From a virus: DNA of 42,338 nt. Positions within the stretch are counted from its first letter, which is position 1, and every line of letters begins with the position of its first letter. The stretch lies in IMG/VR virus record IMGVR_UViG_3300009360_000004; one strand, written 5' to 3'. The translations under genes were made by a program, and so were the position numbers. Shown piece after piece: positions 1-18,420 of this stretch. Under the pieces are notes generated by a model that worked only from the letters and a program-made list of their open reading frames with translations, was not told the origin of the DNA and did not search any database.

Positions 1-136
1 GACGAAGATCTCCCCTCGGCTCTCCAACTCACGGCCTGCGACATGGTGGATCACCAGATGCTGGAGATATCCGGTATCAAGTCTCAGAGTCTCGAAGGCG
101 CTTCGGTCACATACGAAAGTAGCTATTCTCAGAAGA
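1..136. repeat. Terminal direct repeat: bases 1-136 are identical to 42203-42338 (assembly overlap of a circular or circularly permuted genome; unit length 42202 bp)
   Basis: Read both ends directly; the first 136 nt and the last 136 nt are the same string (gacgaagatctcccc...ctcagaaga). Confidence 0.9.
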
Positions 137-2198: not shown

Positions 2199-3557
2199 AT
2201 GGCATACAGAAAATGGCAGAAGAAAAAGACGAGTCTTAGCATAGAAGAACTCACAGAACAGGAAGTTCAAACAAGGATGCTGAATCGCACAAACAAAGGT
2301 CGATGCGGTTATACTCCTCACTTTTATGGTTCTCACTCTGGCCTTGTTGGAGCGAGAATAGGAGAGCTGGTAGCTCACAATATCCCAGACGATGCATATG
2401 GTGTGGAGTGGGATCTCAGCGACAGTTCTTCGGAGCTTACCAGGATAGGTCAAGCTGCAGGGATGGATTCTGATGACTTTGATCTTATTGAACCGTTTGC
2501 AAGTATAGAAAGAATGACTCTTGATAGTGACGGAAATTGGATAGCATCTTTTGGCGATGCGGGATTTGTTGAAGATGGTACAGCCGGTGATGTGGTATCA
2601 AGGTTCAAGAAAGCCTATTATTTTACATATTACTCGCCGGAAGACAAAAAAGTCAGAATGTACTTTTCACCTGAACCGCTGCCCGGGTTTGTACCGTTTG
2701 ACTGTTTTGTAACCGGCGGGCAAACACTCGAAGAAATATATCTAGGCGCATATGAAGGTACTGTTCAAAAAATATCAGACAGCTCATGGGTAGAAGACGC
2801 ATCAGACGGTTCGAATCCAATACAGATAGCTACTCTCGACCTTCCAGACCATATGTTACGTTCCGTCTCCGGAAGAAAGCCAAAAACTAACCAGAATTTA
2901 CCGGAGTTTCGTACTATGGCAGAGAACAGAGGCACTGGTTGGGGATTGGTTGATCTTAAACAGGCCGGAATGGTGAATCTGCTATATCTAATTAAATATG
3001 CTGATTTCGACGCTCAAACGACAGTGGGGCAGGGCATAACCGGAAAAGCATCTGGAACAGGGAACGAATCTGAATTGACTGGTGCAACAGCACTACTAGG
3101 AGCTGTGGACACAGGAGGAACCAACCTTGAAGCAGTCTCGCTATTCGGACTTGAAAACTGGTGGGGTAATATGTGGGAGTTCACAGACGGTGGTGGTATA
3201 AAGTCTGATGGGTTTTATGTAGCTCCAGATAGACCTTACAACGATACCCTAAGTGGATACACACAAATACCGTGTTCACCTCCATTGACAAACGGTTATC
3301 TGAAAGACTTTTACTGGACTCAGGACTCGAAAGGTCTGTTCCTGCCAAAAAGCGTTCAAACCGATGTTCCGTCTGCAAGCAAGTATGTGTGTGACTATCT
3401 ATATACTCCGGCAGCTTATACTACGAACTGCTTTCTACGGGGCGGCCGTTGGATTGACGGCTCGCATGCGGGGCCTTTCTATTGGCATCTGTATTATTCG
3501 TTTGCTTATCGGCATCGGAACGTCGGGGCGCGCGCCTGTTTTGTTCCTACGGTTTAA
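2199..3557 (+). CDS. DGR target protein: putative receptor-binding / tail protein with C-terminal variable region
   Basis: 452 aa from ATG 2199 (RBS caggaggg; the track ORF 2061-3557 reads through the terminator so the true start is 2199). C-terminus ...NCFLRGGRWIDGSHAGPFYWHLYYSFAYRHRNVGARACFVPTV matches the usual C-type-lectin-fold variable-region pattern of DGR targets (RGG-W...G.F...R.VGaR.C). Confidence 0.75.
   Translation: MAYRKWQKKKTSLSIEELTEQEVQTRMLNRTNKGRCGYTPHFYGSHSGLVGARIGELVAHNIPDDAYGVEWDLSDSSSELTRIGQAAGMDSDDFDLIEPFASIERMTLDSDGNWIASFGDAGFVEDGTAGDVVSRFKKAYYFTYYSPEDKKVRMYFSPEPLPGFVPFDCFVTGGQTLEEIYLGAYEGTVQKISDSSWVEDASDGSNPIQIATLDLPDHMLRSVSGRKPKTNQNLPEFRTMAENRGTGWGLVDLKQAGMVNLLYLIKYADFDAQTTVGQGITGKASGTGNESELTGATALLGAVDTGGTNLEAVSLFGLENWWGNMWEFTDGGGIKSDGFYVAPDRPYNDTLSGYTQIPCSPPLTNGYLKDFYWTQDSKGLFLPKSVQTDVPSASKYVCDYLYTPAAYTTNCFLRGGRWIDGSHAGPFYWHLYYSFAYRHRNVGARACFVPTV
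3428..3499 (+). repeat. DGR variable repeat (VR) at the 3-prime end of the target gene
   Basis: Aligns base for base with 3625-3696 (offset 197); 58/72 identical; all 14 mismatches sit where the other copy has A. Confidence 0.8.
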
Positions 3558-3624: not shown

Positions 3625-3696
3625 CTGCTTTCAACAGGGCAGCAATTGGAATAACAGCTCGAATGCAGGGCCTTTCTATTGGAATCTGAATAATTA
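3625..3696 (+). repeat. DGR template repeat (TR), intergenic
   Basis: Non-coding copy of the VR carrying 22 adenines, 14 of which differ in the VR; seven AAY (Asn) codons in the VR reading frame, the classical TR signature. Confidence 0.8.
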
Positions 3697-3742
3697 CTCG
3701 TCTTACCGCATAATGACGTAAAGTGTAAAAAAAACAAACGAA

Positions 3743-3766
3743 GCAGCCTACAATAGGCTGTTTTTG
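3743..3766 (+). terminator. Rho-independent terminator immediately downstream of the TR
   Basis: cagccta-caa-taggctg hairpin followed by ttttt. Confidence 0.55.
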
Positions 3767-3809
3767 TTTATTAACGCAAATATCTTGAACCTCTACCGGA
3801 GGTGAATCT

Positions 3810-4715
3810 ATGAATGATTCAATGTATTTGGACTATGAGCTTTACGGCAATTCAGAAGCAAGAGATGAAATATACTATGACAATGGTTGGAAGTTGCTGA
3901 GACGCTGGCACAAAGAAACCGTTACTTTTGCCAGCAACACCGCAACGCTCTCAAAAGTCGGAAAAGGCGATTGTGAAGTCACGGGTGGTGTGGCAGGAGT
4001 CGTATCTGGCACCACCTGCACAGCAACCATCGCGGATGGAGACCATGAAGTTCTGTATATGCTTCTAATTCCTGAAACCACAGAAATTGGTGCGGGTGTT
4101 GGTTTTGCTACTGATAAAGACGGCGTAATGCTAGACCTTCATCAAGCCAAACAGGTCGATGTTTTTGTTGGTGATGGATATACAACCGAATTTACACTCA
4201 CTGAAACCCCGAATGGAACTGCAAGCATTAAGGCATTTGTAAATGGTCTTGAAGATACAGATGTAACCGTGACTACTACTAAGGTTACATTTACGACTGC
4301 CCCACGCCGCAAAGCGTTGGTTGAGGTTGAATATAGTCTTGCGGTCAAGTATCAGGAACCTTTGACGTATTTGGAATATCTCGAAGCCTCAGGAACCGTC
4401 GAAACAGTACCCGCTCTGGTAGATCTCACAGTCACAGAGAACGAAGAAAAGACAGGCTACGTCAACGTTGACGGTGCACCGCTCAAAGTCGCGGGTAACA
4501 AGACGTACACGGTCACAGTCAACAAAGATTTGATCGAGTCTCAGGACAATGTGCTGGAAGAATACAGAGACAAGAAATTCAGGCTCAAAGTTTCGAACTC
4601 AAGAGACTCAAGCAACGAATACCTCGGAGTCTGTCATATCGACCCCGACGCTTCTCTGGATTACCTGAACGGAACTGAATCAATCACGATAAAGTGTGGT
4701 GATCTCTATGATTAG
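3810..4715 (+). CDS. Putative structural (tail) protein, beta-rich, possible Ig-like C-terminal region
   Basis: 301 aa ORF, RBS cggaggtga before ATG 3810; T/V-rich segments (TVTVTTTKVTFTT, KTYTVTVNKD); no RT motifs. Confidence 0.45.
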   Translation: MNDSMYLDYELYGNSEARDEIYYDNGWKLLRRWHKETVTFASNTATLSKVGKGDCEVTGGVAGVVSGTTCTATIADGDHEVLYMLLIPETTEIGAGVGFATDKDGVMLDLHQAKQVDVFVGDGYTTEFTLTETPNGTASIKAFVNGLEDTDVTVTTTKVTFTTAPRRKALVEVEYSLAVKYQEPLTYLEYLEASGTVETVPALVDLTVTENEEKTGYVNVDGAPLKVAGNKTYTVTVNKDLIESQDNVLEEYRDKKFRLKVSNSRDSSNEYLGVCHIDPDASLDYLNGTESITIKCGDLYD

Positions 4716-5148
4716 CCTCGAATACGGCGTTGAAGTGATACAGCTCAAACCTAAAGACTACGAGAACTGGCTCTATTCTCCGAACGCTCCAACCGAGACA
4801 GACGCGGAATCAGGCGAAATCGTTGACAAGTGGGACACCGAGCAAGGTTCGACGTTTCAATACTTCTTGCTCACATGGGATGAGAACGGAGTGGCCACCC
4901 AGAGAGAAGTCTCGAAGCTCTACGACTTCCTGAAAGCGAAGCCGACCGTCGCAAACCCGATGACTCTCACATTCCCGATGTACCGGGAAGATGGTTCACA
5001 GTATCAGGGCAGGTTCTATGTGGTCTTTGCCGACACCGCGGGTGAGCAGCGTTGCCAATTTAATCAGGCTTTGCGCGCACCAGATGGCACGGCGTACTAC
5101 ACCGGAACGGTCGCATTGATCGAGATAGAAAGGAACGACGACGTGTAA
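4708..5148 (+). CDS. Hypothetical acidic protein (tail module)
   Basis: ORF 4696-5148; the ATG at 4708 overlaps the upstream stop; no recognisable motifs. Confidence 0.4.
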   Translation: MISLEYGVEVIQLKPKDYENWLYSPNAPTETDAESGEIVDKWDTEQGSTFQYFLLTWDENGVATQREVSKLYDFLKAKPTVANPMTLTFPMYREDGSQYQGRFYVVFADTAGEQRCQFNQALRAPDGTAYYTGTVALIEIERNDDV

Positions 5149-5167
5149 CACTCAGGGAGGGGATAAC

Positions 5168-6253
5168 TTGAAGGTCGCAGTTTACGCGATCGCAAAGAAC
5201 GAGGCTAAACACGTGCCTCGATGGTATGACTCCATCGCTGAAGCGGATGGAGTTTTTGTTACAGACACCGGTTCGACCGACAACACGGTTGAACTTCTCA
5301 AAGAACGTGGGGTCAATGTCTTTCATGCAGAGATCGAACCGTGGCGATTCGATGTAGCCAGAAACATCTCTCTTGAGAATGTACCTGAAGACTTCGACGT
5401 ATGTTTGTGCATTGATTTAGACGAAGTAATGGAGAAGGGCTGGAGAGAGAAGGTCGAGAGAATCTTTCGGCTTTACCCGCAGGCCACTCTCGTTCGCTGG
5501 CCGTTCGTGTTCAGCTGGTTCGATGAGAAATGCACGAAACCAAAGACTTCAATGTACCAGTGGAAGATTCACGTCAGACACGGTTATCACTGGGAGTCTC
5601 CCATTCACGAAATCTTGGTATGGCATGGGAATGGCGAGACTCTGGAAGTTTATTGCGAAGACATTCACAGCTGGCATTATCAGGATCTCTCGAAACCTAG
5701 AGAGTATCAGAAACTCATCGACAAGGCCGTCTCCGAAGATCCCACAGATCAACGTCTTTCATGGCTTCGTGCGAGAGAACTGATGATGCATAACAGATTT
5801 GAAGAGGCCATCGAAGAGGCCAAGAGGCACCTCGACCTCACCAAAGAGATCAAGGAAGGCGAGAACACGCTCGTTATTGAACAGCTCCGGGCGCTCTCAA
5901 TGCGGTATATCTCGCAGGCTCTCATGCAGAGACACAAGCAAGACAAGACAGTCGATGCGGGAGAAGTCATTGAATGGATGCTGAAGTCTGTGGCCGAGTG
6001 TCCCTGGCTCCGTGAATCGTGGGTGGCTCTCGCTCAAGCGTGGGCGCTCTTCGATCAGTGGGAACAGGTCTATGCGTGTGCGACTTTCGCGCAGACCATC
6101 AAGGCGAGAACGAATTCGATAGAAAACGACGAGCTGGCCTGGGGCGAGTACCCGGAAAAGCTCGCAAGAATAGCGTGGAAGCAGATCAGAAAAGGAGGGA
6201 AAAGATTTGAGCAACAAGCCAAAGACGGACGTTCAAAAAGCAGAAAAGTTTAA
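5168..6253 (+). CDS. Glycosyltransferase family 2-like protein with C-terminal helical (TPR-like) region
   Basis: 361 aa, TTG start after agggagggg RBS. N-terminus KVAVYAIAKNEAKHVPRWYDSIAEADGVFVTDTGSTDNTVELL plus downstream DLDEV (DxD) matches the GT-A fold pattern of GT2 enzymes. Confidence 0.6.
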   Translation: MKVAVYAIAKNEAKHVPRWYDSIAEADGVFVTDTGSTDNTVELLKERGVNVFHAEIEPWRFDVARNISLENVPEDFDVCLCIDLDEVMEKGWREKVERIFRLYPQATLVRWPFVFSWFDEKCTKPKTSMYQWKIHVRHGYHWESPIHEILVWHGNGETLEVYCEDIHSWHYQDLSKPREYQKLIDKAVSEDPTDQRLSWLRARELMMHNRFEEAIEEAKRHLDLTKEIKEGENTLVIEQLRALSMRYISQALMQRHKQDKTVDAGEVIEWMLKSVAECPWLRESWVALAQAWALFDQWEQVYACATFAQTIKARTNSIENDELAWGEYPEKLARIAWKQIRKGGKRFEQQAKDGRSKSRKV

Positions 6254-6773
6254 TCTCAAAGAGATGATGAAGGATCCCGGCAAGAAGGGATACTTCAGAT
6301 CTCACGGATACTCGGAAATCAAGGTCACGCGCATGAACGAAGAGGGCGAGATGGTCGTTGAGTATCCGAGAATTGAAATCTATCCTCTCGGGGATCACCC
6401 TGTGCTGAAACAATATCAAGATAAGTTCCCCGTTCCCGAGGCCCCAAAAACGATGCGGCTCATAAACAAGAACAACGGGAAAGAGTTCATCGACGAAGGG
6501 CTCTCGATCGAGCAGGCGAAGAACGACCCGAACTATGCCTGGGGCATGGTATATGACTACACCGACGGAGAATACCGCAAAGCAGTCGAGAAGCGAAGCA
6601 GCGATATCTCGATACTCATGATCATGATCTGTCTCGATATGGTCGAGGAGTTCGGGATCGAGAAGATAGAAGAGTTTCAGGAGGCTCTCAAAGATCTGGG
6701 CTTCACCGCAAATCAGCTCAACAAAATCGGGAGTGATATCAAGGCGCTGGATTTTTTGCCCAGCAAGAGCTAG
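6207..6773 (+). CDS. Tail assembly chaperone (gpG-like), upstream partner of a -1 frameshift pair
   Basis: 188 aa ORF immediately upstream of the tape measure gene, TTG start after aaaggaggg RBS; run of six T (6752-6757) near its 3-prime end; the -1 frame is open from 6737 to 7018. Confidence 0.55.
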   Translation: MSNKPKTDVQKAEKFNLKEMMKDPGKKGYFRSHGYSEIKVTRMNEEGEMVVEYPRIEIYPLGDHPVLKQYQDKFPVPEAPKTMRLINKNNGKEFIDEGLSIEQAKNDPNYAWGMVYDYTDGEYRKAVEKRSSDISILMIMICLDMVEEFGIEKIEEFQEALKDLGFTANQLNKIGSDIKALDFLPSKS

Positions 6774-7018
6774 AATACCGGGTACGTGACTGGTATGACT
6801 GGGACAGATTCGAGTACGAAGAGGAGTATGTCCCTGAAGCTCTGAAAGTGATGCTCTGCATACAGAAGTTTGGCCTCACGCTCGAGGAGTGGAGAGACCT
6901 GAAACGAGAGGACCAGCTGGTCTATCTCTACGGAATGACGGGAATCTCGATGCTCGAAAGGCGCGAAGCGGAGAGGGCAAAACAGGCAAGCCAGAATAGA
7001 GGGAGCGTTCTTGATTGA
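6752..7018 (+). other. Putative -1 programmed frameshift site (T TTT TTG) and gpT-like extension ORF
   Basis: Slippery heptamer at 6752-6758 in the zero frame of the chaperone; the -1 frame has no stop from 6737 to TGA 7016-7018 and no good start of its own; classic G/GT arrangement before a tape measure gene. Confidence 0.45.
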
Positions 7019-7036: not shown

Positions 7037-10000
7037 GTGATGACTATGGCTTTCGAAGGACTGAATTTTGATGTTGGCCTGAACTCGAGGCCGTTCACAG
7101 ACGGAATCAAGACGATGCAGACTCAGGCTGCCTCGTTTGATAATACAATCAAGAATATTGGCAGAACGCTTATGGGAGTCTTCGGGACCGTCTCTGTCGT
7201 CGCCACACTGAAGAAGTCTATCGAGTTGTGGGGCGAGCAGGAGCAAGCGATGATGAAACTCTCCATCGCCGCGCAGAGGTTCACGAGAGACGCGCAGGGT
7301 ACATACGACAGGGTCACAAAACTGTCGGGCAATCTCCAGCACCTCACGGGCATAGGGAACGAGACGTACCAATCCGTCGCGGCTCTGGGCCTCTCGCTCG
7401 GAATCACGGAGGAGAAGATCGAGAACGCCACGACCGCGGCGGCCCTCCTCTCGCAGGTGACGGGGATGGATCTGAACAGCGCCATGAAGAACCTGGCAAA
7501 GACTCAGGCGGGATTGACGGGTGAACTTGGAGAAGCTCTCCCGTTTCTCAGAGAACTGACGCAAGAACAATTGAAGAGTGGTGCAGCAATCGACCTCGTG
7601 ATTCAGAAGTATGACGGCTTTGCCGAGCAGCTTTCAGGCACAACGCAGGTGGCGATGAAGAGATTCTGGTCCGCGCTTGGAGATGTCGGGGAGGTCCTGG
7701 GCAAGTCGTTCAACCCCTTGATTCAAAAAGCCGCTGACTGGATGGAAGGCTTCAGCTCGAAGATCGAGAAACCGACCGACATTCTCAAGACACTAAAAGA
7801 CACGATCAAGGCAGGATACGAAGAACTCGGGCCGTTCGGCAAGGCTGTTGTAGGTGTAGGTGCTGCGTTCCTGACGCTCAAGGTTGCTGGCACTGCATGG
7901 AGCTTGCTCTCACAGATAGTTGTGGCTGGTGGTCATCTGATTGTAGGCGTGTTCAAGACGATATTCTCGTGGCCCACACTCTTAATTGCTGGTTTGTACA
8001 CCCTTCGTGTTGCATGGGATCACGACTGGTTCGGGATTCAGGGGACGGTTGAACACGTTTGGAAAGTGATTGAGCCTATATTTATAAAACTCAAAGACGG
8101 TCTCGTCTCAGCCTCCACATGGGCTATATCTCTGGTTTGGGAAGGCGTGAAGTGGGCTGGAGAAAAGATAGCCGTCACATACGAAACTATCAAAGACTGG
8201 GTGCTCGAAGAGCTTGCACTTGGGAAGTCCCCGCTTGAGATCGTCGTTGATGCCGCAAAGATTGCGGGCGGTGTTGTCTGGGATGGTCTTACATGGGTAG
8301 GAGAAAAAATCGCGCTAGGTACGCAAATAGTCTTTGACTGGGTAAAATCTCAATTTGGAGATGAAATAGAGGTTGTAATCAATGCAGCTAAAGTCTTCGG
8401 TGGTATGGTTTGGAAAGGGCTCAAATGGGCCGGAGAGAAAGCAATAGTTACTGCACAGATGATTTATGATTTTGCTCTTAAATATGTACCGCTTGGTATT
8501 GAGACTGTTATCAACGTTGCATCAGTGTTTGGTTCGGTGATTTGGTCCGGCTTAAAATGGATAGGTGAAAAAGCAGTTAATCTTGCGGTTCTTATCAAAG
8601 ACTTTGCAGAAAGTGAAATAGATACAGGCTTTGAACAAACAATACAGATTGCAAAAGTCTTCGGCTCTATCATATGGTCTGGTCTCAAGTGGGTTGGAGA
8701 AAAGATAGTTCTCGGTATCAAAGTGATAGAAGGTTGGGTGAGAGATCAACTTGATCTCCCAGAAACCGCAACGCTCCCTGAAATCTTCCTTGATATGGTC
8801 AGAGTAGTTGGCACGGCAGCGTGGGATGGCTTGAAATGGGTAGGCCAGAAGGTTGCTATTGGTGCCAAAGAAGTCTATGATTGGGCTTCCGAAGGGCTAG
8901 AAACAGGCTTTGAACTCACAATCGAAGTTGCTAAACTGTTTGGCGGGGTAGCCTGGCAAGGGTTGGTAAAACTCGGTGAATGGTCATATGATGTTGCTGT
9001 GTGGGCTAAGGACAATGTCCTCCCTGCTGTGATTGAGACTACGGTTGAAGTTGGAAAGGTAATCGGTGGCGTTAGCTGGCTAGGTCTCAAATGGGTAGGT
9101 TCACAGATTGCGATAGGTTTTGACACTCTCAGAAACTGGGTCTATTCGGAGCTTGGCCTTGACAAGTATGGAGCGACATCAAATATCCTGATCGAAGTTG
9201 CCAAAGTCTTCGGAGGTCTAGGCTGGCTCGGTTTGAAATGGACCGGAGAAACGATAATTCTCGGATACGAAGCGCTCAAGAAGTGGACTGAAGAGCAGCT
9301 AGGCACCACACCGGTTGACATCATTCTCAATGTTGCGAAAGTAACAGGCACGGCAATCTGGGAAGGTGTGAAGTGGATAGACGACAAACTCCCAAAGATT
9401 GATCTCGGTGCTGACGATGAACAGAAAGTAGATCAGGGCATCGTGGATGTAGTTGTGAGTGCGATAGCTAACATTGCATCGTGGCAGTGGAGGGGCTTTG
9501 TCTGGCTCACTGAGAAGGCTTCATTCGGGCTCGACTGGCTCGCAGATCAGATCCGACCGAAAATAAATGTTGAAGTAAACGGAGACGATAACTCGGGTTT
9601 TGATATTGGAGATATAGGAGTATTCGCAAAGGGAGTCGCGAAGGTATTCTCAATGAAGTGGGAAGCCGTCAAGTGGCTCTGGACGAAAGTCACACAGAGC
9701 ACTTTCATTGAGGACCTGAAAAACAGAATAAAGAAATCATCGGGCATAGATGATGAGGTCGAAGTCACCTGGAAAGACTTGTTAGTCCGGGGCTTCGGCT
9801 CTATTGGCTCTGCCGCGTGGGATGGTCTTACATGGTTTGCGGAAGGTCCGGTACATACATTTGCCGACTGGGTACGAAAGCAGATCGGTATGAGCGAAGC
9901 CGGAGAGATGAAAGTAAACCTCGGGGATGACATTAAAGTGATCCTCTCGGGTGCAGTCTCTGGTGCGACTTGGCTAGTTGATTGGGTCAAACAAGGGATA

Positions 10001-12346
10001 GGGGCCGCAACCGAATGGCTTCAAGATGTAGGAGCAGTCCTTCGTAGGGCTGTGGAAGGCGTAGAAATGAGCGCAGAGGATATAAAACTCTATGAAACCA
10101 CGGCTTCGTTTGGCGTAAAATTGGGTGAGTTCATAGGTGCTGGAATCAAAGCGGGCCTCAATCTTCTTGACATAATTCAGAGTGCGCTTGCTGGAGTAAT
10201 TGCAGAAATGACAGGCTCAAAAGAAGTTGGCCAAGTTGCTGGGACTGCAATTCCTTTGTTTTTCACTGCAAAGTGGCTCATGACTCCAATTGCTACACTT
10301 ACCCCATTTCTTGTTGCTGCAATGGGTTTCGCGGGATTGAAGCCTCTCACTTTCGGGACGTTCGGTGTGATGGTTGCGTTAAAAGTTGCGCAGGATCTTT
10401 CAACAGGCGAGGCCGAGTGGCAGGACATAGGGGCAAGGTTCGTTGCCGCCCTTGCCGTGGGTATGGGGATAGGAGCGTTTCTCGGCAGTCCGAGCGCGGG
10501 GGTGCTGACATTCGAGCTTCTCATGCTCGTCAAAGTTGAAAAGTTTGTTGACAGCATAGGAAATGTTGTGAAAGATCTTGTGGACGCTGTCCTGTTCCCT
10601 GAATTCGTCGATCTTCCTGTATCTGAGAAGATGGAGAAGACTATCGGCGCACTTGAAAAGCTCGATCAGACTCTTGACAGACCCGCAGACAATCTTGCAA
10701 CGTGGCTCATCACTGTGGATGAAGCACTCGGAAATTTTTACAATACATTCCCGACGAAAGTCGAACTCAATCAGATGGGCGAACTTGAACAGAGCTACTA
10801 TATGGCCGTGCTCGAATATGCTCATGCCCTTGAGGCGTCATCAAATGCGATACTCGATGCAGCAGATGATCTTGCAGCAACGGCTCAAATGATCGAGAAC
10901 ATGAGACAGATAGTTGTGCCGATACCTGGGAAAGCAGAAGGCGGTTACATCTCAGGCCCGGGCGGTCCTAAAGAGGATAGAATACCCGCCCTACTCTCGA
11001 ACGGTGAGTTCGTAGTCAATGCGAAGTCAACCGAAAAGTGGCTACCGTTCTTGAAAGCAATCAATGCTCAAGGCTTTGCAGACGGTGGAATAGCTCGGTT
11101 TGCCACAGGCACGGCAACGAAGATAGACGTTGGCAGTATTGGTGGTGGTCCGCTCACATGGTGGGATACAATTCTAAACACCCTTATGAGTGTGGTCGGA
11201 GACTATGCCGAGACCGCAAAGAAAGACTTCGGGATGATTAAGAACGTACTCGGAGACTTGCTCAGAACAATAGGTCTTGACATCGACGCGCCGCTAGACA
11301 ATCTGAACAAACTGCAAAGTGAGCTTGACGGTCTGACTCTTTCTACGAGCGATACAGGTGATACAGTAGAAGACTTCATGACCGCCATGTTCAGGGGATA
11401 TCGCAAAATCAATCAAATCTCTGAGGTTCTCAGTGAAGGCAAGATAGAGAACGTCAATAGACAGCTTGCGTTCCTTGATACTGCGATGAACGATCTTGAA
11501 AAACAGTTCATGGAAGGAACCATCCAGCTCGGAGAGTACACGGAAAGAATGACATATCTCAAGAATTTGACAGACAGTTTCTCTGACTCTCTCGGAGACC
11601 TCAAGAAGAAGATTGAACGCAGCTCGATAGTCGGTGACTCATCCGAGATATTCAAGGTTGACGAGAACACCGGCGAGCTGGTCTCTGTATTTGCAAAACT
11701 GAGGCCGGGCATGGAAGGACTCACAGATGTTGTGGGCAATTTAGCCACAGCGGGTGAAATGTTTGCCATGAGTCTGTTGAATCAGGTCGTGAACCTCGAA
11801 GCTATCAACATGCTCCTGAATCCGATCTCAACGATTCTCACAGGTGTGATGGAGATACTAGGTCCGATCATCAACCTCTTGAAACCTCTCGGCGACGCGC
11901 TGGTCAGCATAGGCAGAGTCTTCGCCCTGACGTTCAATCTCTTCGGTCAGGGCCTCCTGGTTCTCCAACCGTTCTTCAAGGCTCTAGGCTGGCTCGGTGC
12001 TACGATCTCGTATATCGCGGACCAGATAGTCCTGTTCGTCGATGGAATTTTCACCTGGTTAAGCACTCTGCCGTTCATAGGTGGTCTGTTCAGTCCTCTC
12101 CTAACAGAGGATCAGAGGCAGAGCATGAAGCGCACCATCCCGGAGAGGATGGAAGATATCGAGCTTCCACAGTCCACGACAGGGCAGGTCTTCCAGGCAG
12201 GGAGTTCCCAGCACATCACGAACAACTACCACTTCGAGTTCAGGGGAAACGACATTCTCACAGAAGACGACGAAAGCGCCCGACGGTTCGCAGATCTCAT
12301 CTACAAGAACCTTCGCGATCGCGGCGTTCAGTTGCAGGTAGGGTGA
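7037..12346 (+). CDS. Tail tape measure protein
   Basis: 1769 aa ORF (ATG at 7040 or 7046 more likely than GTG 7037); largest gene, after the chaperone pair; N-terminal coiled coil, hydrophobic central segments, at least ten tandem ~45 aa repeats carrying W-x-G-L-K-W-x-G-E-K. Confidence 0.85.
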   Translation: MMTMAFEGLNFDVGLNSRPFTDGIKTMQTQAASFDNTIKNIGRTLMGVFGTVSVVATLKKSIELWGEQEQAMMKLSIAAQRFTRDAQGTYDRVTKLSGNLQHLTGIGNETYQSVAALGLSLGITEEKIENATTAAALLSQVTGMDLNSAMKNLAKTQAGLTGELGEALPFLRELTQEQLKSGAAIDLVIQKYDGFAEQLSGTTQVAMKRFWSALGDVGEVLGKSFNPLIQKAADWMEGFSSKIEKPTDILKTLKDTIKAGYEELGPFGKAVVGVGAAFLTLKVAGTAWSLLSQIVVAGGHLIVGVFKTIFSWPTLLIAGLYTLRVAWDHDWFGIQGTVEHVWKVIEPIFIKLKDGLVSASTWAISLVWEGVKWAGEKIAVTYETIKDWVLEELALGKSPLEIVVDAAKIAGGVVWDGLTWVGEKIALGTQIVFDWVKSQFGDEIEVVINAAKVFGGMVWKGLKWAGEKAIVTAQMIYDFALKYVPLGIETVINVASVFGSVIWSGLKWIGEKAVNLAVLIKDFAESEIDTGFEQTIQIAKVFGSIIWSGLKWVGEKIVLGIKVIEGWVRDQLDLPETATLPEIFLDMVRVVGTAAWDGLKWVGQKVAIGAKEVYDWASEGLETGFELTIEVAKLFGGVAWQGLVKLGEWSYDVAVWAKDNVLPAVIETTVEVGKVIGGVSWLGLKWVGSQIAIGFDTLRNWVYSELGLDKYGATSNILIEVAKVFGGLGWLGLKWTGETIILGYEALKKWTEEQLGTTPVDIILNVAKVTGTAIWEGVKWIDDKLPKIDLGADDEQKVDQGIVDVVVSAIANIASWQWRGFVWLTEKASFGLDWLADQIRPKINVEVNGDDNSGFDIGDIGVFAKGVAKVFSMKWEAVKWLWTKVTQSTFIEDLKNRIKKSSGIDDEVEVTWKDLLVRGFGSIGSAAWDGLTWFAEGPVHTFADWVRKQIGMSEAGEMKVNLGDDIKVILSGAVSGATWLVDWVKQGIGAATEWLQDVGAVLRRAVEGVEMSAEDIKLYETTASFGVKLGEFIGAGIKAGLNLLDIIQSALAGVIAEMTGSKEVGQVAGTAIPLFFTAKWLMTPIATLTPFLVAAMGFAGLKPLTFGTFGVMVALKVAQDLSTGEAEWQDIGARFVAALAVGMGIGAFLGSPSAGVLTFELLMLVKVEKFVDSIGNVVKDLVDAVLFPEFVDLPVSEKMEKTIGALEKLDQTLDRPADNLATWLITVDEALGNFYNTFPTKVELNQMGELEQSYYMAVLEYAHALEASSNAILDAADDLAATAQMIENMRQIVVPIPGKAEGGYISGPGGPKEDRIPALLSNGEFVVNAKSTEKWLPFLKAINAQGFADGGIARFATGTATKIDVGSIGGGPLTWWDTILNTLMSVVGDYAETAKKDFGMIKNVLGDLLRTIGLDIDAPLDNLNKLQSELDGLTLSTSDTGDTVEDFMTAMFRGYRKINQISEVLSEGKIENVNRQLAFLDTAMNDLEKQFMEGTIQLGEYTERMTYLKNLTDSFSDSLGDLKKKIERSSIVGDSSEIFKVDENTGELVSVFAKLRPGMEGLTDVVGNLATAGEMFAMSLLNQVVNLEAINMLLNPISTILTGVMEILGPIINLLKPLGDALVSIGRVFALTFNLFGQGLLVLQPFFKALGWLGATISYIADQIVLFVDGIFTWLSTLPFIGGLFSPLLTEDQRQSMKRTIPERMEDIELPQSTTGQVFQAGSSQHITNNYHFEFRGNDILTEDDESARRFADLIYKNLRDRGVQLQVG

Positions 12347-12350
12347 TAGT

Positions 12351-12698
12351 ATGACAGTTGACATAGGATCTCTCAGTTTCACGGTGTACCCGAAGAAATA
12401 CAAGCACCCATACAGAACCAGAGTGATCGAGCCGGTGGAGGTCATAAACATTGCGCCCGACGGTTCGGCATATCACTATTGTGACGGCACGGTGAAGAGA
12501 TACAAAATACCTCTCTTCTTCACCGAGTCGGACAGAACCACGCTGGAATCATACAGGCAGACCGCGGCGACTTTGAAGATAGACTCGGAGTCTGCCGTGA
12601 ATGTGAAACTGATCGGGAACTACGAGTACAAAGAAAAGTGGATCAAAGGCGTGGCAATGTACGAAGAAACGCTTGAGTTCCTGGAGGTGGCCACATGA
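12351..12698 (+). CDS. Hypothetical tail protein (distal tail protein position)
   Basis: 115 aa ORF directly after the tape measure gene, overlapping the next gene by 4 nt. Confidence 0.4.
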   Translation: MTVDIGSLSFTVYPKKYKHPYRTRVIEPVEVINIAPDGSAYHYCDGTVKRYKIPLFFTESDRTTLESYRQTAATLKIDSESAVNVKLIGNYEYKEKWIKGVAMYEETLEFLEVAT

Positions 12699-15586
12699 GT
12701 TTTCAGGTCAACCTCAATAGTGTGGACATATCGGCCCGGATAGTCTCCGGGCCGGTTGTTCATAAGAACGACGTCCTTCACGGTCGGATCTCTCCGAACG
12801 AGTGCAGCTTCGATATAGACAACACGAATCTTGCCTATACCATCTCGAACCTCGACATTGAAGGCCAGCTCGTGGAAGTGTGGGTAGATTCAACGAAACA
12901 GTTTACAGGCTACGCAGAAAAGCCGACTCTCACGAGAAATGGTCGAACAGTCACAATCAAAGCGTTCGACAAGATGAAGCAGCTTCAGAAGCTCAAGTGC
13001 GACGACAAGATGTTCATCGGATCGACCGCGGACGACATTCTGACGTGGCTCGTGGAGACTTGCGGAGGCATAGGTTCGGGCAGTCATAGCCTCGACAGCA
13101 TACTCGTTGCGACCTCCGGCGGCACGACTCAGGCGGTCGTGGGGTACGCGTTGTATTCGGTCAAAGACAAACTCACGGATAGGCTTCAGGAGATCGTCGA
13201 TTCGTGCGGCGGGTCTATGTGGTTCGACGAGTCGGGGGTCCTCCAATTTCGGGCAGGATTCGCGGCCACCTGGTCAACGTCCACAGTCGGCACGATCACA
13301 GTCTCGAAACTGAAAGACATAGACTCTCTTCAATGGTTGCCGAGCGAGGGCGATCGAGTCATTGTCAAATCGAAGAACCGCAGTGTCAAGACCGAGAAAG
13401 AGCCCGTCTTCACCTGGTCCGGCGTGGTCACAAGTGACGGACTGCCGACCGGCAAGGACGAGAACGGCAACGCTATCACCGACGACCAGTGGCGCGCGAA
13501 GTTCGACTCTCCGGCCATTGAGATAGATGACTACGCAACCGTTGACGCGGCCAAAGAATTCGACTCCGGGCTGACACTCAATCAGACCGTGTACGACGCG
13601 AACTTCGACTCCGGCGTTCTGAAGTACCCGGACTTCATGTATCTCCAGATAGACAACAGCTCGGGCGTTGACAAGAACGTCACGAAGCTGGTTATCGAGG
13701 GGAAGCCGGTCGTGGAGAACTATCTGGAAGTGATTCACGACGCGGGTAGTTTCAACACGGAGAGGGAGGTCTCGAACGATCTGATCTCCTCGAAGGTCTG
13801 GGCTTCGTCTCTGGCGAAGTGGTTGTACGAAAACGGCAACGACAAGTTCGAAGCAGTCGTGCCGCTCGCGGACTTCTCACTTGGCTTGAGCTGGAGCGTC
13901 GGAGACAAGGTTAACATCGTCGATGCTTCGACGGGTCTTTCACACAGAGCGTGGGTCAGGGCGATAGACATAGACTACCGCAACAGGGATCTGACGGTCA
14001 CGCTCAGGAGCGACAGAGCCTCCGGGTTCGAGTACACGGCGCCTCCAGGTTCGATCACCGGTCCGGGAACGAATATACCCTACGAACCACAGTTCGGTGA
14101 CGGTTCGGCTCCGGCAACTCCTACGGGGCTCGCTCTCACGGCCTTCGCGGTCAAGAATAGAAGCTATGTCAAGGCCACGTGGGACGCGAACACCGAGGAG
14201 GACCTGATCGGGTACGAGGTGCAATGGAACTACGACAATGGTGCAACTTGGTACAACGCCGGGTTCGTGAACAACAACGAGCTGGTGATCGAGGTCACAA
14301 ATCAGTGGGTGTCGGGGACTTCATACACTGTTTACGTTCAGGTCAGGGCTGTGGATATCGAGAATCTTCGTTCCGACTGGTCGACTTCTGACAGCGAGAC
14401 TATTCTCTACGACACCACGGCACCGGCAATCCCCGGGAGCATCTCGGCGGTCGGTGGAGTCGGTTTGATTCACGTCGATTGGTCGCAGGTGTATGACTCG
14501 GACGTGGAGCAATACTATCTTTATCGAAAGGTTCAGACCTCGGACGGCGGCGCTTTCAGTGCAAATTGGACGTTCCTTGCCGCCGTGAAAGGCACTGACT
14601 TCGTAGACAAAGACGTCGAGTATCATATAACAGACTCGGACGACCCGAACTATCCGCAATGGCGAAAATATATCTACGCCGTCAGGGCGACCGATTATGC
14701 GAATAATGCTTCTGATCGCAGGGAAATGTCAACTGCAAACGCTGTCTATGCGACTCAAGCCACGGGCGATGACATAGCCGTAAACTCAATCACGGCAAAC
14801 CACATCAATGTGGCTCTGGATCTTTCGGTCGGTCGTCAGATAAAGGTCGGTTCTCAGATACAGATAGGAGCTGACGTTGGCCCTGTCGGCGATACGTTCG
14901 ACGGAATCTACGTAACAGACGGCACGAACTACGTCAGGCTCTCTGCCGATGAGGTCAAAATCAAAGGCGATTTAGTTATTGGCGCAGGAGACAACGTTAT
15001 AGAGTTCGAGGACTCGAACATCTCCCTGGGGGACACCACGACGGAAGTGGCAGGAAACCTGACGAGGTACTATCTTCAGTTCAAAGCCCTGACAGGGTGG
15101 GGGAGCGACCCTGACCGTCAGGTGTTGGCTGTCGGGTACGCCCTGAACACTACCGACGACGAGTACCATTCGTATCTGGAACTTCAGAATCGTTTCGACA
15201 ACTACTCGAATATGGCGAGATTTAACATCTATGCTAAGACCGGCTCGAATCTTTCCAGTGGTGCGCACGTCCAGCTAGGTTTCTACGCATACAACAATTC
15301 GGGGGCCAATCTTGCCGGAGGGATTCTCTCGTTCATCCGTGAGGCCGAGGCCTCTTCTAAAGGCTGGTTCTATACCGACTCGGCATTGGAGCAGGTTATC
15401 CCGTACTGGTATGGGACGAGCGGTTCGCCCACGGCTAAACTCCCGTCTTTCAGCACTTGGACGGACGCTGAAGATTGCCCGGCATCGAACATCTGGATAT
15501 GGAGAAATTCGGGGGATAGCAAATACTATCTCTATATTCGAGATGTGAATGGAGATGTTCTGAAATGTGAAATGACTTTGACATAG
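12695..15586 (+). CDS. Tail fibre / host-recognition protein with fibronectin type III-like repeats
   Basis: 963 aa; repeated beta-rich segments with the W...Y...V.A.D motif pattern of FN3 domains (e.g. KATWDANTEEDLIGYEVQWNYDNG...YTVYVQVRAVD); position after tape measure protein. Confidence 0.6.
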   Translation: MSFQVNLNSVDISARIVSGPVVHKNDVLHGRISPNECSFDIDNTNLAYTISNLDIEGQLVEVWVDSTKQFTGYAEKPTLTRNGRTVTIKAFDKMKQLQKLKCDDKMFIGSTADDILTWLVETCGGIGSGSHSLDSILVATSGGTTQAVVGYALYSVKDKLTDRLQEIVDSCGGSMWFDESGVLQFRAGFAATWSTSTVGTITVSKLKDIDSLQWLPSEGDRVIVKSKNRSVKTEKEPVFTWSGVVTSDGLPTGKDENGNAITDDQWRAKFDSPAIEIDDYATVDAAKEFDSGLTLNQTVYDANFDSGVLKYPDFMYLQIDNSSGVDKNVTKLVIEGKPVVENYLEVIHDAGSFNTEREVSNDLISSKVWASSLAKWLYENGNDKFEAVVPLADFSLGLSWSVGDKVNIVDASTGLSHRAWVRAIDIDYRNRDLTVTLRSDRASGFEYTAPPGSITGPGTNIPYEPQFGDGSAPATPTGLALTAFAVKNRSYVKATWDANTEEDLIGYEVQWNYDNGATWYNAGFVNNNELVIEVTNQWVSGTSYTVYVQVRAVDIENLRSDWSTSDSETILYDTTAPAIPGSISAVGGVGLIHVDWSQVYDSDVEQYYLYRKVQTSDGGAFSANWTFLAAVKGTDFVDKDVEYHITDSDDPNYPQWRKYIYAVRATDYANNASDRREMSTANAVYATQATGDDIAVNSITANHINVALDLSVGRQIKVGSQIQIGADVGPVGDTFDGIYVTDGTNYVRLSADEVKIKGDLVIGAGDNVIEFEDSNISLGDTTTEVAGNLTRYYLQFKALTGWGSDPDRQVLAVGYALNTTDDEYHSYLELQNRFDNYSNMARFNIYAKTGSNLSSGAHVQLGFYAYNNSGANLAGGILSFIREAEASSKGWFYTDSALEQVIPYWYGTSGSPTAKLPSFSTWTDAEDCPASNIWIWRNSGDSKYYLYIRDVNGDVLKCEMTLT

Positions 15587-16249: not shown

Positions 16250-16464
16250 TGCATGCAGGATTCGGATTCTTCTTCGCGCTCATATTTGGATTCATAATGC
16301 GCAACGCATGGCTTGGGTTCGCGATAGCTGTTCTAGCCGGGGCCACGAAAGAGGTTGTCTGGGACTGGTGGCTCAAGAAAGGGACGCCTGAGCTGTTAGA
16401 CTTCGTGGCGACACTCATCGGCGCGGCTCTAGGGTTTGCTATGCTGTTGCTCGTGCGCTTCTAG
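16237..16464 (+). CDS. Small multi-pass membrane protein (holin candidate)
   Basis: 75 aa, GTG start after ggaggt RBS; two to three hydrophobic helices (FGFFFALIFGFIM, LGFAIAVLAGA, FVATLIGAALGFAMLLLV). Confidence 0.45.
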   Translation: MDKVVHAGFGFFFALIFGFIMRNAWLGFAIAVLAGATKEVVWDWWLKKGTPELLDFVATLIGAALGFAMLLLVRF

Positions 16465-16474
16465 GGAGGTTGAT

Positions 16475-17886: not shown

Positions 17887-17955
17887 AGTTTTTTCGTAGT
17901 TCTGCTCATAACTTTCCTAGCAGCTCAAGTTTCAACAATGGAGGTTGATACTCCA

Positions 17956-18420
17956 ATGGGCATAAAACTCGACTTCATCGAGAAGTACCGCAGCGACGCT
18001 ATTCTCGTCGGGCTGGCCTGTGACTTTCCTCCGATCATTCTTCTCGTGCAGGCCGCGCTCGAGACAGGCTGGGGGAGGCATATGGTCGGGAACAATCTGT
18101 TCGGTATCAAGGACGTTCCCTGGATTCCCGGGAGTGTGGAAAAAGAAACGACTGAATTTGATACTGTATGGAAAACTGAGACACACAGCTTTGAAACGTT
18201 CGACTCTCCTATCCAGTGCATGGTTGCGTATGTAGTAAAAATACGTACAGAACCAAGATATAGTACAGCCTGGAAATTCAGACATGAACCCACAACGTAC
18301 TTCGAAGAACTCCAGAAAGCAGGCTATGCCACAGATCCAGACTACGCTAAAAAACTTGTACGCATTTTTGATACATTCCCCGAATGGGAGGTGGATGATG
18401 CCAGCACCCAAAACGATTAA
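17956..18420 (+). CDS. Endolysin, glucosaminidase (N-acetylglucosaminidase-like) domain
   Basis: ATG 17956 preceded by ggaggt RBS (track ORF starts at 17938); motif VQAALETGWGRHMVGNNLFGIK typical of the glucosaminidase/FlgJ-type lysozyme family. Confidence 0.65.
   Translation: MGIKLDFIEKYRSDAILVGLACDFPPIILLVQAALETGWGRHMVGNNLFGIKDVPWIPGSVEKETTEFDTVWKTETHSFETFDSPIQCMVAYVVKIRTEPRYSTAWKFRHEPTTYFEELQKAGYATDPDYAKKLVRIFDTFPEWEVDDASTQND

Follow-up and report, generated by a model that had tools for sequence, protein, structure and literature searches.

An SgtA-like GT2 and TPR glycosyltransferase in a phage tail operon, with a proposed role in virion-protein glycosylation

The glycosyltransferase gene and its neighborhood

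The stretch of DNA analyzed here (the window, 42,338 nucleotides) represents a complete circular phage genome of 42,202 bp, with terminase, portal, capsid, tail and lysis genes. A megablast search of window positions 1–25000 against 50,697 phage records found no near-identical cultured phage. The host may be a bacterium of the Thermotogota, a hint at the level of binning. The gene under study, referred to below as GT, lies among the tail genes. The relevant features are as follows.

1349–1909, + strand: probable major tail (tube) protein, 186 aa, assigned by position after the Neck1/tail completion gene (508–897) and the gene at 894–1334
2199–3557, + strand: DGR target tail protein with the variable region at its 3′ end (PHROG 5302, E=8e-73; VR/TR repeat D5)
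3810–4715, + strand: clade-restricted virion protein of 301 aa with a probable Ig-like middle domain (synteny; weak PHROG 11431 match)
4696–5148, + strand: 150-aa protein with no assigned function, immediately upstream of GT (synteny, identities)
5155–5162, + strand: Shine-Dalgarno sequence GGGAGGGG, 5 nt upstream of the GT TTG, read from the sequence
5168–6253, + strand: GT, SgtA-like GT2 and TPR glycosyltransferase gene, 361 aa, TTG start (ORF list, Pfam, PHROG, AF2, dN/dS)
5168–5692, + strand: GT-A catalytic domain, residues 1–175 (invariant alignment columns, secondary structure of the model, GmaR/SunS/ThuS matches)
5264–5281, + strand: DTGSTD motif, residues 33–38, inside the GT-A domain
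Residues 60–66 of GT, + strand: RFDxxRN motif, inside the GT-A domain
5414–5425, + strand: DxDE motif, residues 83–86, inside the GT-A domain
5606–5611, + strand: HE motif, residues 147–148, inside the GT-A domain
5705–6223, + strand: TPR-like helical domain, residues 180–352 (AF2 helices, family TPR profile matches, full-length SgtA alignment)
Residues ~353–361 of GT, + strand: basic, disordered C-terminal tail, overlapping the chaperone start, with low pLDDT at 356–361
6207–6773, + strand: tail assembly chaperone (G-like), GGAGGG before TTG 6207, directly before the tape measure gene
6752–7018, + strand: −1 programmed frameshift giving the GT-like chaperone product, slippery T_TTT_TTG at 6752–6758, ending at TGA 7016–7018
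7037–12346, + strand: tape measure protein, 1769 aa (PHROG tape-measure families)

An earlier note, made from the letters of the DNA, had placed a 361-aa glycosyltransferase at 5168–6253, and the ORF list contains exactly this frame on the + strand with a TTG start. The Shine-Dalgarno sequence before the start is strong, and the N-terminus aligns with homologs from residue 1–2 in the family alignment. The motifs that the note had named are all present, AKNE at residues 9–12, VTDTGSTDNT at 31–40, and DLDEV at 83–87. Residues D33, T34, G35, S36, D38, D83, D85, and E86 are invariant columns in the 42-sequence family alignment (A1), and all 31 invariant family residues are kept in GT, including those of DTGSxD, RFDxxRN, DxDE, and HE. 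The family's terminal P-x-x-ERL-x-x-N TPR cap is swapped for the basic disordered tail in the window clade.

GT is under strong purifying selection, with dN/dS about 0.04. The values range from 0.03 to 0.05 at dS 0.6–1.1, and dN (0.026–0.053) is the lowest of the compared module genes in three of four comparisons. Together with the 1129 homologs found at E≤1e-5, this dN/dS shows that GT is not a chance ORF.

The tail operon around GT

As the earlier note had it, GT lies within the tail module, immediately ahead of the genes for the chaperone and the tape measure. This position is kept in all of the approximately 12 related contigs, and it is the same throughout the window clade, including a lineage of about 65% identity. 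No relatives lacking GT were found; scans with the 150-aa protein and with the chaperone gave the same ~12 contigs, all with GT. The gene has the same orientation as the late tail operon and is unpunctuated within it. No +-strand promoter-like or terminator-like sites were identified between 3764 and 8853, the site counts being not above the shuffled expectation.

Upstream of GT lies a conserved cassette opened by the 301-aa gene. PHROG 11431, "virion structural protein", weakly matches residues 118–188 of the product. The protein has just 10 homolog clusters, all within the window clade, and its AF2 model is poor (pLDDT 58, pTM 0.32), with confident parts only at about residues 31–85 and 113–177. 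The 150-aa protein is the most conserved neighbor of GT, with 79% identity in the sister lineage. Some gene calls give it 146 aa. Pfam, PHROGs, NCBIfam, and PDB sequence searches returned no significant match for the 301-aa, 150-aa, or 186-aa proteins.

Downstream, the locus displays the lambda-like G/GT chaperone layout of two overlapping frames, a −1 slippery heptamer, and a tape measure start at 7037, and contig L007 of the sister lineage has the same layout. The ORF at 6848–7018 occupies the −1 frame of the chaperone, and a homologous extension ORF is found in L007. The tape measure gene carries internal 132-nt repeats (families D1/D2). The 47-nt overlap between GT and the chaperone gene (6207–6253) reported in the earlier note holds if TTG 6207, which GGAGGG precedes, is the chaperone start. 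At the homologous MSQK N-terminus of the chaperone, L007 has an ATG, which lies 38 nt within the glycosyltransferase gene of that lineage. Some automatic gene calls place the chaperone start at ATG 6267, which leaves no overlap.

Fold and enzyme class

GT is predicted from sequence and model to be a soluble, cytoplasmic, catalytically intact fusion of an inverting-type GT-A (GT2) domain and a TPR-like domain, and a homolog of SgtA. Enzymes of this type were already known. The profile search that had been proposed, against Glycos_transf_2 (PF00535), gives 32.3 bits at residues 8–102, above the Pfam gathering cutoff of 23.3. PHROG 13126 matches with E=2.8e-80 over profile positions 1–323 of 394. 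The PHROGs category of this family is "moron/auxiliary metabolic gene" (moron/host takeover).

The AF2 model, with pLDDT 93.2, consists of a beta/alpha N-terminal GT-A domain and a TPR-like domain. The helical C-terminal half anticipated in the earlier note is borne out by AF2 helices at residues 180–352 and by strong TPR profile matches. A GT fold was thus found by profile and by structure prediction alike, and the best PDB matches are GT-A plus TPR enzymes. The best Foldseek matches are SunS and ThuS (7msn/7msp), with E about 4e-16 and TMq 0.61–0.65, covering both domains. Foldseek also matches the model to TarS, SpsA, and TarP; for TarS and TarP, which are wall-teichoic-acid glycosyltransferases, E is about 1e-8 to 1e-6 and TM 0.35–0.39.

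Among the best 60 of 102 PDB matches of the family profile, GmaR is the top match to the GT domain (E=4e-11, profile positions 11–171), followed by SunS (1e-8) and ThuS (7e-7). A further weak GT-domain match in this set is 7x9r, "Glycosyl transferase family 2" (1.2e-4, profile positions 145–347), and the remainder are TPR proteins. With the GT sequence itself, SunS is the top PDB match, the similarity being detectable through residue 230. The sole NCBIfam match is the SunS family (equivalog TIGR04195), at 21.3 bits against a cutoff of 350, which places GT outside that family.

The sequence of SgtA was recovered from locus L183 (2004–3080), where it adjoins bclA3. GT and SgtA share 30% identity over 236 aa by BLASTP (E=1e-18), and hhalign aligns the two at full length over 342 columns with a probability of 99.8% (E=3e-29).

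Partner genes of GT homologs

The gene neighborhoods of 160 homolog loci were compared. In loci of 47 of 80 bacterial species, the GT homolog has a (G-x-T)n collagen-like ORF at a distance of 1.5 kb or less. The density of such ORFs in bacterial loci is 23.1 per 100 kb at 0–1.5 kb and falls to 1.5 per 100 kb at 3–6 kb; 48 are upstream of the GT homolog versus 3 downstream. Phage homologs show related arrangements. A collagen-like tail fiber gene is directly followed by the GT homolog in locus L012, and two collagen genes are followed by it in the Actinomycetia phage DSL-LC01. In loci P0003 and P0004 the homolog comes directly after RCC1-repeat proteins, upstream of lysis cassettes. The structural context is not clear in the jumbo phages PaBG and Dickeya JA11, where the homolog lies between DNA ligase and head protease. 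The ~360-aa GT2 and TPR proteins are tightly linked to (G-x-T)n collagen-like genes in Firmicutes and to fiber genes in phages. The earlier note had called glycosyltransferases unusual among virion genes; for this family that overstates the case, as at least four other phage lineages carry homologs in their structural modules.

The complete 42,202-bp genome contains no collagen-like ORF, even at four or more G-x-y repeats; therefore the usual partner of the family is absent. Ser/Thr-rich segments occur in several structural proteins of the window, and a scan for them placed one such loop near residues 98–117 of the 186-aa tube protein; these segments are too unspecific to nominate a site. No alternative acceptor motif was identified in the window genome.

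Possible substrates of the enzyme

The best overall explanation, which we regard as moderately probable, is that GT is a late-expressed O-glycosyltransferase of virion proteins. Enzymes related to GT glycosylate spore-surface, flagellar, and bacteriocin proteins, and therefore GT probably attaches sugars to one of the phage's own virion proteins. A virion protein is favored over a host surface polymer on the analogy of the close characterized relatives SgtA, SunS/ThuS, and GmaR, which all act on proteins or peptides, and on the setting in the late tail operon.

A host target is an unlikely alternative. GT could modify a component of the host cell envelope, such as wall or toga polysaccharide, an S-layer or other surface protein, flagellin, or a host collagen-like protein, thereby blocking superinfection or the trapping of progeny on debris. 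Prophage GT2 enzymes like TarP glycosylate wall teichoic acid, and TarP and TarS have the same GT-A fold. GmaR, a sequence relative of GT, glycosylates host flagellin. The PHROGs class is moron/host takeover, and the acceptor was not found within the phage genome. However, the TarS/TarP matches are weaker than those of SunS/ThuS by about 8 orders of magnitude and are not full-length. GT lies within an unpunctuated late tail operon, overlaps the chaperone gene, and is not moron-like in position or conservation. The GT model shows no apparent membrane segment or secretion signal. Neither an integrase nor a lysogeny module was found among the annotated genes, so lysogenic conversion is unlikely. 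Transfer of sugar to phage DNA, a nucleotide, or a small molecule, for instance to hypermodified bases as a defense against restriction, is very unlikely. Phage glycosyltransferases are classically DNA glucosyltransferases (review PMC12619734), genes for a radical SAM protein, a MazG-like pyrophosphatase, and a ParB-methyltransferase are present in the genome, and the jumbo-phage homologs adjoin DNA ligase. However, no gene of a hydroxymethyl-pyrimidine pathway was detected in the genome, and about 24 kb separate GT, in the tail operon, from the genes of nucleotide metabolism. SgtA and the named GT-domain relatives among the PDB profile matches listed act on proteins or peptides, and a DNA substrate leaves the TPR-like domain and the tight linkage to fiber and collagen genes unexplained.

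The structural matches raise the question of whether GT is a glycocin S-glycosyltransferase of the SunS type, acting on a small secreted, bacteriocin-like peptide of phage or host. SunS and ThuS are the top structural matches, SunS is the top PDB sequence match and the sole NCBIfam match, and SunS is itself encoded by the prophage SPbeta. The score on the SunS equivalog (21 versus 350 bits) and the structural identity of 14–17% argue against this function, in contrast to the full-length alignment with SgtA at 30% identity. The N-terminal extension of SunS, of about 55 residues, is missing in GT. No ABC transporter, thiol-disulfide oxidoreductase, or precursor peptide gene appears among the annotated genes, whose coverage of small ORFs is unsystematic. 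Genes linked to the family encode large collagen-like or fiber proteins, not small peptides. The glycocin function is therefore highly improbable. To a similar degree we doubt that GT is mainly a TPR-based tail assembly factor or scaffold whose glycosyltransferase activity is vestigial. GT is directly coupled to the G/GT chaperone gene, TPR domains commonly mediate protein–protein assembly, and the terminal TPR cap is replaced by a basic disordered tail in the window clade. Against a vestigial enzyme, all invariant catalytic and nucleotide-binding residues of the family are kept, and conservation of GT is high from end to end (dN 0.026–0.053).

Proposed role in virion-protein glycosylation

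Under virion-protein glycosylation, one late transcript would run from the 301-aa gene through the 150-aa gene, GT, and the G/GT chaperone gene to the tape measure gene, and translation of GT is probably coupled to that of the chaperone. The enzyme would take a host UDP-sugar together with a divalent metal bound by DxD(E). The donor may be UDP-GlcNAc or a UDP-hexose, by analogy with SgtA, GmaR, and SunS. GT would then O-glycosylate at least one phage virion protein on Ser/Thr residues, before or during tail assembly, and the benefit might be shielding, stability, or adhesion. The TPR-like domain may help to recognize the protein acceptor. In SunS the TPR-like domain also mediates dimerization, and thus the TPR half of the window GT need not bind the acceptor.

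The most likely acceptors, we infer, are the products of the upstream cassette (the 301-aa Ig-like protein and the 150-aa protein) or the tail tube protein. The 150-aa protein is a candidate acceptor or partner. Further candidates are the DGR target, the 169-aa protein encoded after the capsid gene (41527–42036), and the 963-aa distal tail protein (12695–15586). This assignment is by association of genes; the acceptor specificity of GT2 enzymes is not predictable from sequence, and GT is just 30% identical to SgtA. The earlier note had suggested the variable DGR target or the Ig-like tail protein as acceptor, and neither is singled out by any evidence. As a linked partner the DGR target was rejected, the DGR cassette varying in the clade while GT is constant. 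The DGR reverse transcriptase is present in contigs L204 and L007 and absent in the window, and L208 has no room for a TR or an RT.

If GT glycosylates a tail protein, phage-encoded virion glycosylation would extend beyond the mycobacteriophages, where it has been demonstrated, to a new host, which may be a member of the Thermotogota, and to a different enzyme family. It would also bear on the virion stability, adsorption, and immune recognition of phages. The comparative result provides a concrete hypothesis for a badly annotated family of ~360-aa GT2 and TPR proteins, now named "beta-1,4-glycosyltransferase" or "cell wall biosynthesis". These proteins are homologous to SgtA, the only member for which protein O-GlcNAc transferase activity is demonstrated. 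In the window clade the enzyme occurs without the collagen partner and offers a compact system, with about 2.5 kb of flanking genes, for acceptor recognition by the TPR domain.

A broader proposal can be put forward only tentatively, and we consider it rather doubtful at present. SgtA-like GT2 and TPR enzymes (PHROG 13126) might form a widespread, so far unrecognized phage system for glycosylating tail fibers and other virion surface proteins, borrowed from the spore-surface (BclA-type) machinery of Firmicutes. The acceptor would have switched repeatedly. Many phages would use collagen-like fibers and others RCC1 beta-propeller proteins, and the acceptor here would be an unrelated tail protein specific to the clade, its modification having become a fixed, translationally coupled step of tail assembly. 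Enzymes of the PHROG 13126 type match at least 541 stretches in IMG/VR, and homologs account for more than 521 in GTDB. The literature searched yielded no report linking SgtA-like glycosyltransferases to phages.

Comparison with known systems

SgtA (CD3350) of Clostridioides difficile, the spore-surface transferase for BclA3, transfers beta-O-GlcNAc in vitro from UDP-GlcNAc, with Mn2+, onto Thr in collagen-repeat peptides from BclA3 (PMC7157674). It is composed of a GT-A domain at aa 1–260 and TPRs at 262–358 (PMC7157674). The two proteins are alike in size (358 versus 361 aa) and in their N-terminal GT-A and C-terminal TPR halves, share the KNE, DTGSTD, F-x-x-ARN, DxD, PxHE, and RE(L/Y) motifs, and are both soluble and cytoplasmic. 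Homologs of GT lie beside (G-x-T)n collagen-like genes, as sgtA lies beside bclA3. However, sgtA is a cellular gene of sporulation that precedes the gene for its substrate, whereas GT is a phage gene in a tail operon of a genome without a collagen-like gene. The identity is just 30%, GT belongs to a distinct subfamily with about 40% identity to hundreds of Firmicute proteins, and a basic tail takes the place of its last TPR cap.

SunS and ThuS (PDB 7MSN, 7MSP, 7MSK) also combine a GT-A domain with a helical TPR-like domain and act on a polypeptide acceptor, and SunS is likewise phage-derived, being encoded by prophage SPbeta according to the PDB molecule name. Their structural identity to GT is only 14–17%, and alignment offsets show that GT does not have the ~55-residue N-terminal extension of SunS. 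SunS forms an S-linkage, joining the sugar to Cys in a small bacteriocin. GmaR, the flagellin O-GlcNAc transferase of Listeria monocytogenes (PDB 22ao/22ap), is again a GT2 and TPR enzyme and O-glycosylates Ser/Thr of a filament-forming structural protein. It differs in being encoded by a cellular, not viral, gene, and the PDB entry comprises only the 204-residue N-terminal domain. GmaR is longer than GT and bifunctional, acting also as the anti-repressor of MogR.

TarP and TarS share the GT-A (GT2) fold and UDP-GlcNAc-type chemistry with GT, and TarP is a prophage-encoded GT2, but they act on a polyol-phosphate polymer. Their C-terminal domains are oligomerization or carbohydrate-binding modules, not TPRs. 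The phage members of PHROG 13126, named "beta-1,4-glycosyltransferase" (PaBG gp263, Lu11, Erwinia/Dickeya jumbo phages, Synechococcus S-SRM01, and DSL-LC01), are 24–37% identical to GT. Those of jumbo phages lie in a mixed replication and head context rather than in a siphovirus tail operon. The literature searched held no experimental characterization of PHROG 13126 proteins, and the name is an annotation transferred by similarity.

Mycobacteriophages (Che8, Rita, and others) are reported to encode glycosyltransferases that add glycans to subunits of their own capsid and tail tube (Freeman et al. 2023, cited in PMC11256854 and PMC12619734). In Maravista, an F1 cluster phage closely related to Che8, the glycosyltransferase genes are near the 3′ end of the genome and not in the tail operon (PMC11256854). 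The hosts of these phages are Actinobacteria, and no mycobacteriophage is listed in the organism and host tallies of the 69 tblastn matches to GT. The proposed biology is nevertheless the same in both systems, and in both the glycosyltransferase is encoded by the phage itself.

Gene Order and Conservation around the Glycosyltransferase

The first 136 nt of the window (1–136) are a perfect copy of its last 136 nt (42203–42338), so that the record closes into a circle of 42,202 bp and is a complete assembly of a full siphovirus genome. Replication genes follow 3′ of the lysis region.

Genes of the window, by coordinate
508–897: Neck1/tail completion protein
1349–1909: probable tube protein, by position
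2199–3557: tail protein targeted by the DGR (PHROG 5302)
3810–4715: 301-aa protein
4696–5148: 150-aa protein
5168–6253 (+): glycosyltransferase
6207–6773: tail assembly chaperone, 188 aa
7037–12346: tape measure protein
12351–15586: distal tail proteins
17938–18420: glucosaminidase endolysin
30267–31166: radical SAM protein
31751–32257: MazG-like pyrophosphatase
34989–36155: ParB-domain DNA methyltransferase
36160–37684: small and large terminase
37688–39046: portal
39021–39950: Mu F-like minor head protein
40043–40657: scaffold
40673–41515: major capsid

The earlier note had placed a gene for a 361-aa protein at 5168–6253, between tail genes and the chaperone and tape measure genes; the ORF listing gives exactly these coordinates on the plus strand, with a TTG start, and the gene order agrees. 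The TTG is the first possible start after an in-frame stop, GGGAGGGG lies upstream of it at 5155–5162, and the N-terminus aligns with those of homologs from residue 1–2 in the family alignment. The 47-nt overlap claimed with the chaperone gene holds if TTG 6207, which has a GGAGGG Shine-Dalgarno, is the chaperone start, and is lost with ATG 6267, which some automatic gene calls prefer. In L007, the diverged sister lineage of the clade, the homologous N-terminus of the chaperone (MSQK) begins at an ATG codon that lies 38 nt inside the L007 glycosyltransferase gene. The 3′ end of the chaperone gene carries the slippery heptamer T_TTT_TTG (6752–6758), its −1 frame is open to 7018, and the tape measure start lies 19 nt further; the heptamer and open frame together are the signature of a lambda G/GT chaperone.

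No promoter-like or terminator-like site was found on the plus strand from the hairpin at 3740–3764 to 8853, and the genes for the 301-aa protein, the 150-aa protein, the glycosyltransferase, the chaperone and the tape measure therefore appear to form a single late transcription unit. The hairpin itself, an 11-bp stem followed by a T-run just 3′ of the DGR template repeat, could be a terminator parting the DGR target from this operon, or a DGR-associated hairpin.

The order of these five genes is kept in all of the clade's contigs in IMG/VR (about a dozen), extending to a lineage with only 54–79% protein identity. Scans with the proteins neighbouring the glycosyltransferase found no relatives that lack it. 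Against four orthologs (dS 0.6–1.1) its dN/dS is 0.03–0.05, its dN is the lowest among the compared module genes in three of the four comparisons, and all 31 residues invariant in the wider family are retained. The gene is under strong purifying selection with its position fixed in the late tail operon; judged by sequence, it is functional and matters to the phage. In the sister lineage, an extra 115-aa ORF (L007:3396–3743) lies between the 150-aa gene and the glycosyltransferase.

The large terminase (36470–37684) shows 93% identity to a partial protein of a Thermotogaceae MAG (NLT46171.1) and 58% identity to proteins of several Thermotogota MAGs; one cluster with 61% identity bears E. coli labels. 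By MAG binning alone, a Thermotogota host is tentatively suggested. The endolysin is single-domain and carries no wall-binding module, so a non-Gram-positive host is at least compatible.

The DGR and Other Features of the Window

The variable repeat (VR, 3428–3511) and template repeat (TR, 3625–3708) are 77% identical with differences mostly at TR adenines, which marks the DGR as real at the sequence level. The reverse transcriptase (RT) is absent from the window, where only its last 12 codons are left (3775–3810). A 334-aa RVT_1 gene occupies this spot in the sibling contig L204, 99.8% identical downstream (L204:159–1163), and in L007 (357–1361), and L208, another contig of the clade, has only a 59-nt gap there (5126–5185), with no room for TR or RT. 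Within a single phage clade, the DGR cassette is thus subject to ongoing gain or loss.

Inside the tape measure gene, a 132-nt (44-aa) repeat built around the core W-x-G-x-K-W-x-G-E-K occurs about six times (8129–9264); the protein differs in length between related contigs, possibly through repeat number. The only clear minus-strand ORF (20226–20849), with weak HNH/unknown PHROG matches, encloses a 156-nt tandem duplication of 73% identity (20523–20834), and the AT skew of its region is reversed. A 387-aa calcineurin-like metallophosphoesterase (16436–17599) is encoded after the distal tail genes and ahead of the endolysin, an unusual location for such an enzyme.

The Enzyme and Its Relatives

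The motifs quoted in the earlier note are all present (AKNE 9–12, VTDTGSTDNT 31–40, DLDEV 83–87), and the profile check it proposed gave 32.3 bits for Pfam Glycos_transf_2, above the gathering cutoff of 23.3. PHROG 13126 ('beta-1,4-glycosyltransferase') matches nearly the full protein length (E=2.8e-80). AlphaFold2, run on an alignment of 42 sequences, gave a model of very high confidence (pLDDT 93.2, pTM 0.87), with a beta/alpha GT-A domain at residues 1–175, an all-helical domain at 180–352 that bears out the expected helical C-terminal half, and then a short basic disordered tail. In the family profile search the helical half strongly matches consensus TPR proteins. Sequence and model show an intact GT-A/DxD catalytic domain joined to a TPR-like domain.

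A PDB search with the sequence matched only SunS, a SunS-like protein and GmaR. The family profile matched 102 PDB sequences; among the best 60, the named glycosyltransferase-domain matches were GmaR (4e-11), SunS (1e-8) and ThuS (7e-7), 7x9r was a weak unnamed 'Glycosyl transferase family 2' match (1.2e-4, profile positions 145–347), and the others were TPR proteins. The fold search placed SunS and ThuS on top over both domains (E about 4e-16, TM 0.61–0.65), with TarS, SpsA, chondroitin polymerase and TarP behind (1e-8 to 1e-6, TM 0.35–0.39). SunS and ThuS glycosylate bacteriocin peptides, and GmaR O-GlcNAcylates flagellin. Membership in the SunS family was rejected (a score of 21 bits where the cutoff is 350).

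A closer comparator than these relatives of solved structure is SgtA of C. difficile, whose gene we located through a published primer sequence (L183:2004–3080, with bclA3 immediately 3′). It is 30% identical to the window enzyme over 236 residues (E=1e-18) and aligns with 342 columns of the family profile across both domains (probability 99.8%, E=3e-29). SgtA has 358 residues, GT-A at 1–260 and four TPRs at 262–358; its gene adjoins the collagen-like exosporium gene bclA3, and in vitro it transfers beta-O-GlcNAc from UDP-GlcNAc (Mn2+) to Thr of GPT-repeat peptides (PMC7157674). The sequence comparison shows the window protein to be a full-length homolog of this proven protein O-GlcNAc transferase.

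Genomic Partners of the Family

Homologs of about 40% identity are GT2+TPR proteins of about 360 aa, mostly from Firmicutes. Collagen-like (GPT)n genes lay beside the homolog in the first contexts examined, and the pattern was therefore quantified in 80 bacterial loci (one per GTDB species) and 80 viral loci. A run of at least six G-x-y repeats occurs within 1.5 kb of the homolog in 47 bacterial and 29 viral loci. With farther distances in the same loci as control, collagen-like ORFs per 100 kb number 23.1 (bacterial) and 13.3 (viral) at 0–1.5 kb versus 1.5 and 3.3 at 3–6 kb, a bacterial excess of about 15-fold. Within 1.5 kb, 48 lie upstream versus 3 downstream in bacteria, usually right before the homolog and in the same orientation, and 18 versus 6 in viruses. 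Thr usually fills 45–100% of the repeat Y positions. Tight linkage to BclA-like collagen-repeat (G-x-T)n genes is a feature of the family and suggests a general O-glycosylation system for collagen-like proteins well beyond C. difficile SgtA/BclA3.

Phage contexts are diverse. In L012, a viral locus, a collagen-like tail fibre gene is followed directly by the homolog, then by virion and tail proteins, a fibre-assembly protein and a 2OG-Fe(II) oxygenase. The oxygenase gene (L012:14018–15133) lies about 5 kb 3′ of the fibre and glycosyltransferase genes, in a phage unrelated to the window. Animal and giant-virus collagens are both hydroxylated and glycosylated, an analogy hinting that the L012 fibre may be so too. 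In Actinomycetia phage DSL-LC01 the homolog ends a block with two collagen genes. P0003 (53%) and P0004 (46%), the two nearest relatives of the window clade, belong to temperate phages, where they are encoded in the distal-tail region just 5′ of the lysis cassettes, each immediately preceded by a gene for an RCC1-repeat protein of about 400 aa (Pfam RCC1 E=1e-46 and 1e-59). These beta-propeller genes (L205:1823–3040, L207:1208–2398) have Thr-rich products, which may be alternative glycosylation acceptors or receptor-binding proteins. In other phages the upstream gene varies; in jumbo phages the homolog sits between DNA ligase and head protease.

Acceptor and Possible Functions

The complete window genome contains no collagen-like ORF, not even four consecutive G-x-y triplets, and the family's usual partner is therefore missing. 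The acceptor candidates nearest the enzyme are the 150-aa and 301-aa proteins. The former shares 79% identity with its sister-lineage counterpart, and no homologs were detected outside the clade. The latter is confined to the clade: among 5.8 billion sequences it has no more than 10 clusters. PHROG gives it a weak 'virion structural protein' match at residues 118–188, and its model is confident only for two beta-rich segments. We propose that the enzyme would act in the cytoplasm, before the tail is assembled or as it is being assembled, O-linking sugar from a host UDP-sugar to Ser/Thr of at least one virion protein, with the TPR domain selecting the acceptor.

The enzyme could possibly modify a component of the host envelope instead. 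Three things speak against this: its place in the operon, a similarity to TarS/TarP that is much weaker, and annotated genes that include no lysogeny module. A glycocin-type peptide is a rival substrate in keeping with the fold match to SunS and ThuS, SgtA being the closer comparator. DNA is another: the radical SAM, MazG-like and ParB-methyltransferase genes suggest some nucleotide/DNA modification capacity, apart from the glycosyltransferase. A non-catalytic assembly role would suit the tail operon, and has to be set against the retained catalytic domain.

Comparison with Known Systems

Glycosylation of virion proteins by the window enzyme, as proposed here, is plausible biology and testable, and would not surprise a specialist. 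Proteomes of phages and giant viruses commonly contain the glycosyltransferase fold, and the enzyme belongs to GT2, PHROG 13126 and the SgtA-like GT2+TPR group. Mycobacteriophages provide a precedent for virion glycosylation by phage-encoded enzymes, as summarised in PMC11256854 and PMC12619734. New, within what was searched, are the homology that ties this phage family to SgtA, the measured association of the family with collagen-like or fibre genes, and a clade whose core tail-assembly operon has the glycosyltransferase built in, with no collagen partner.
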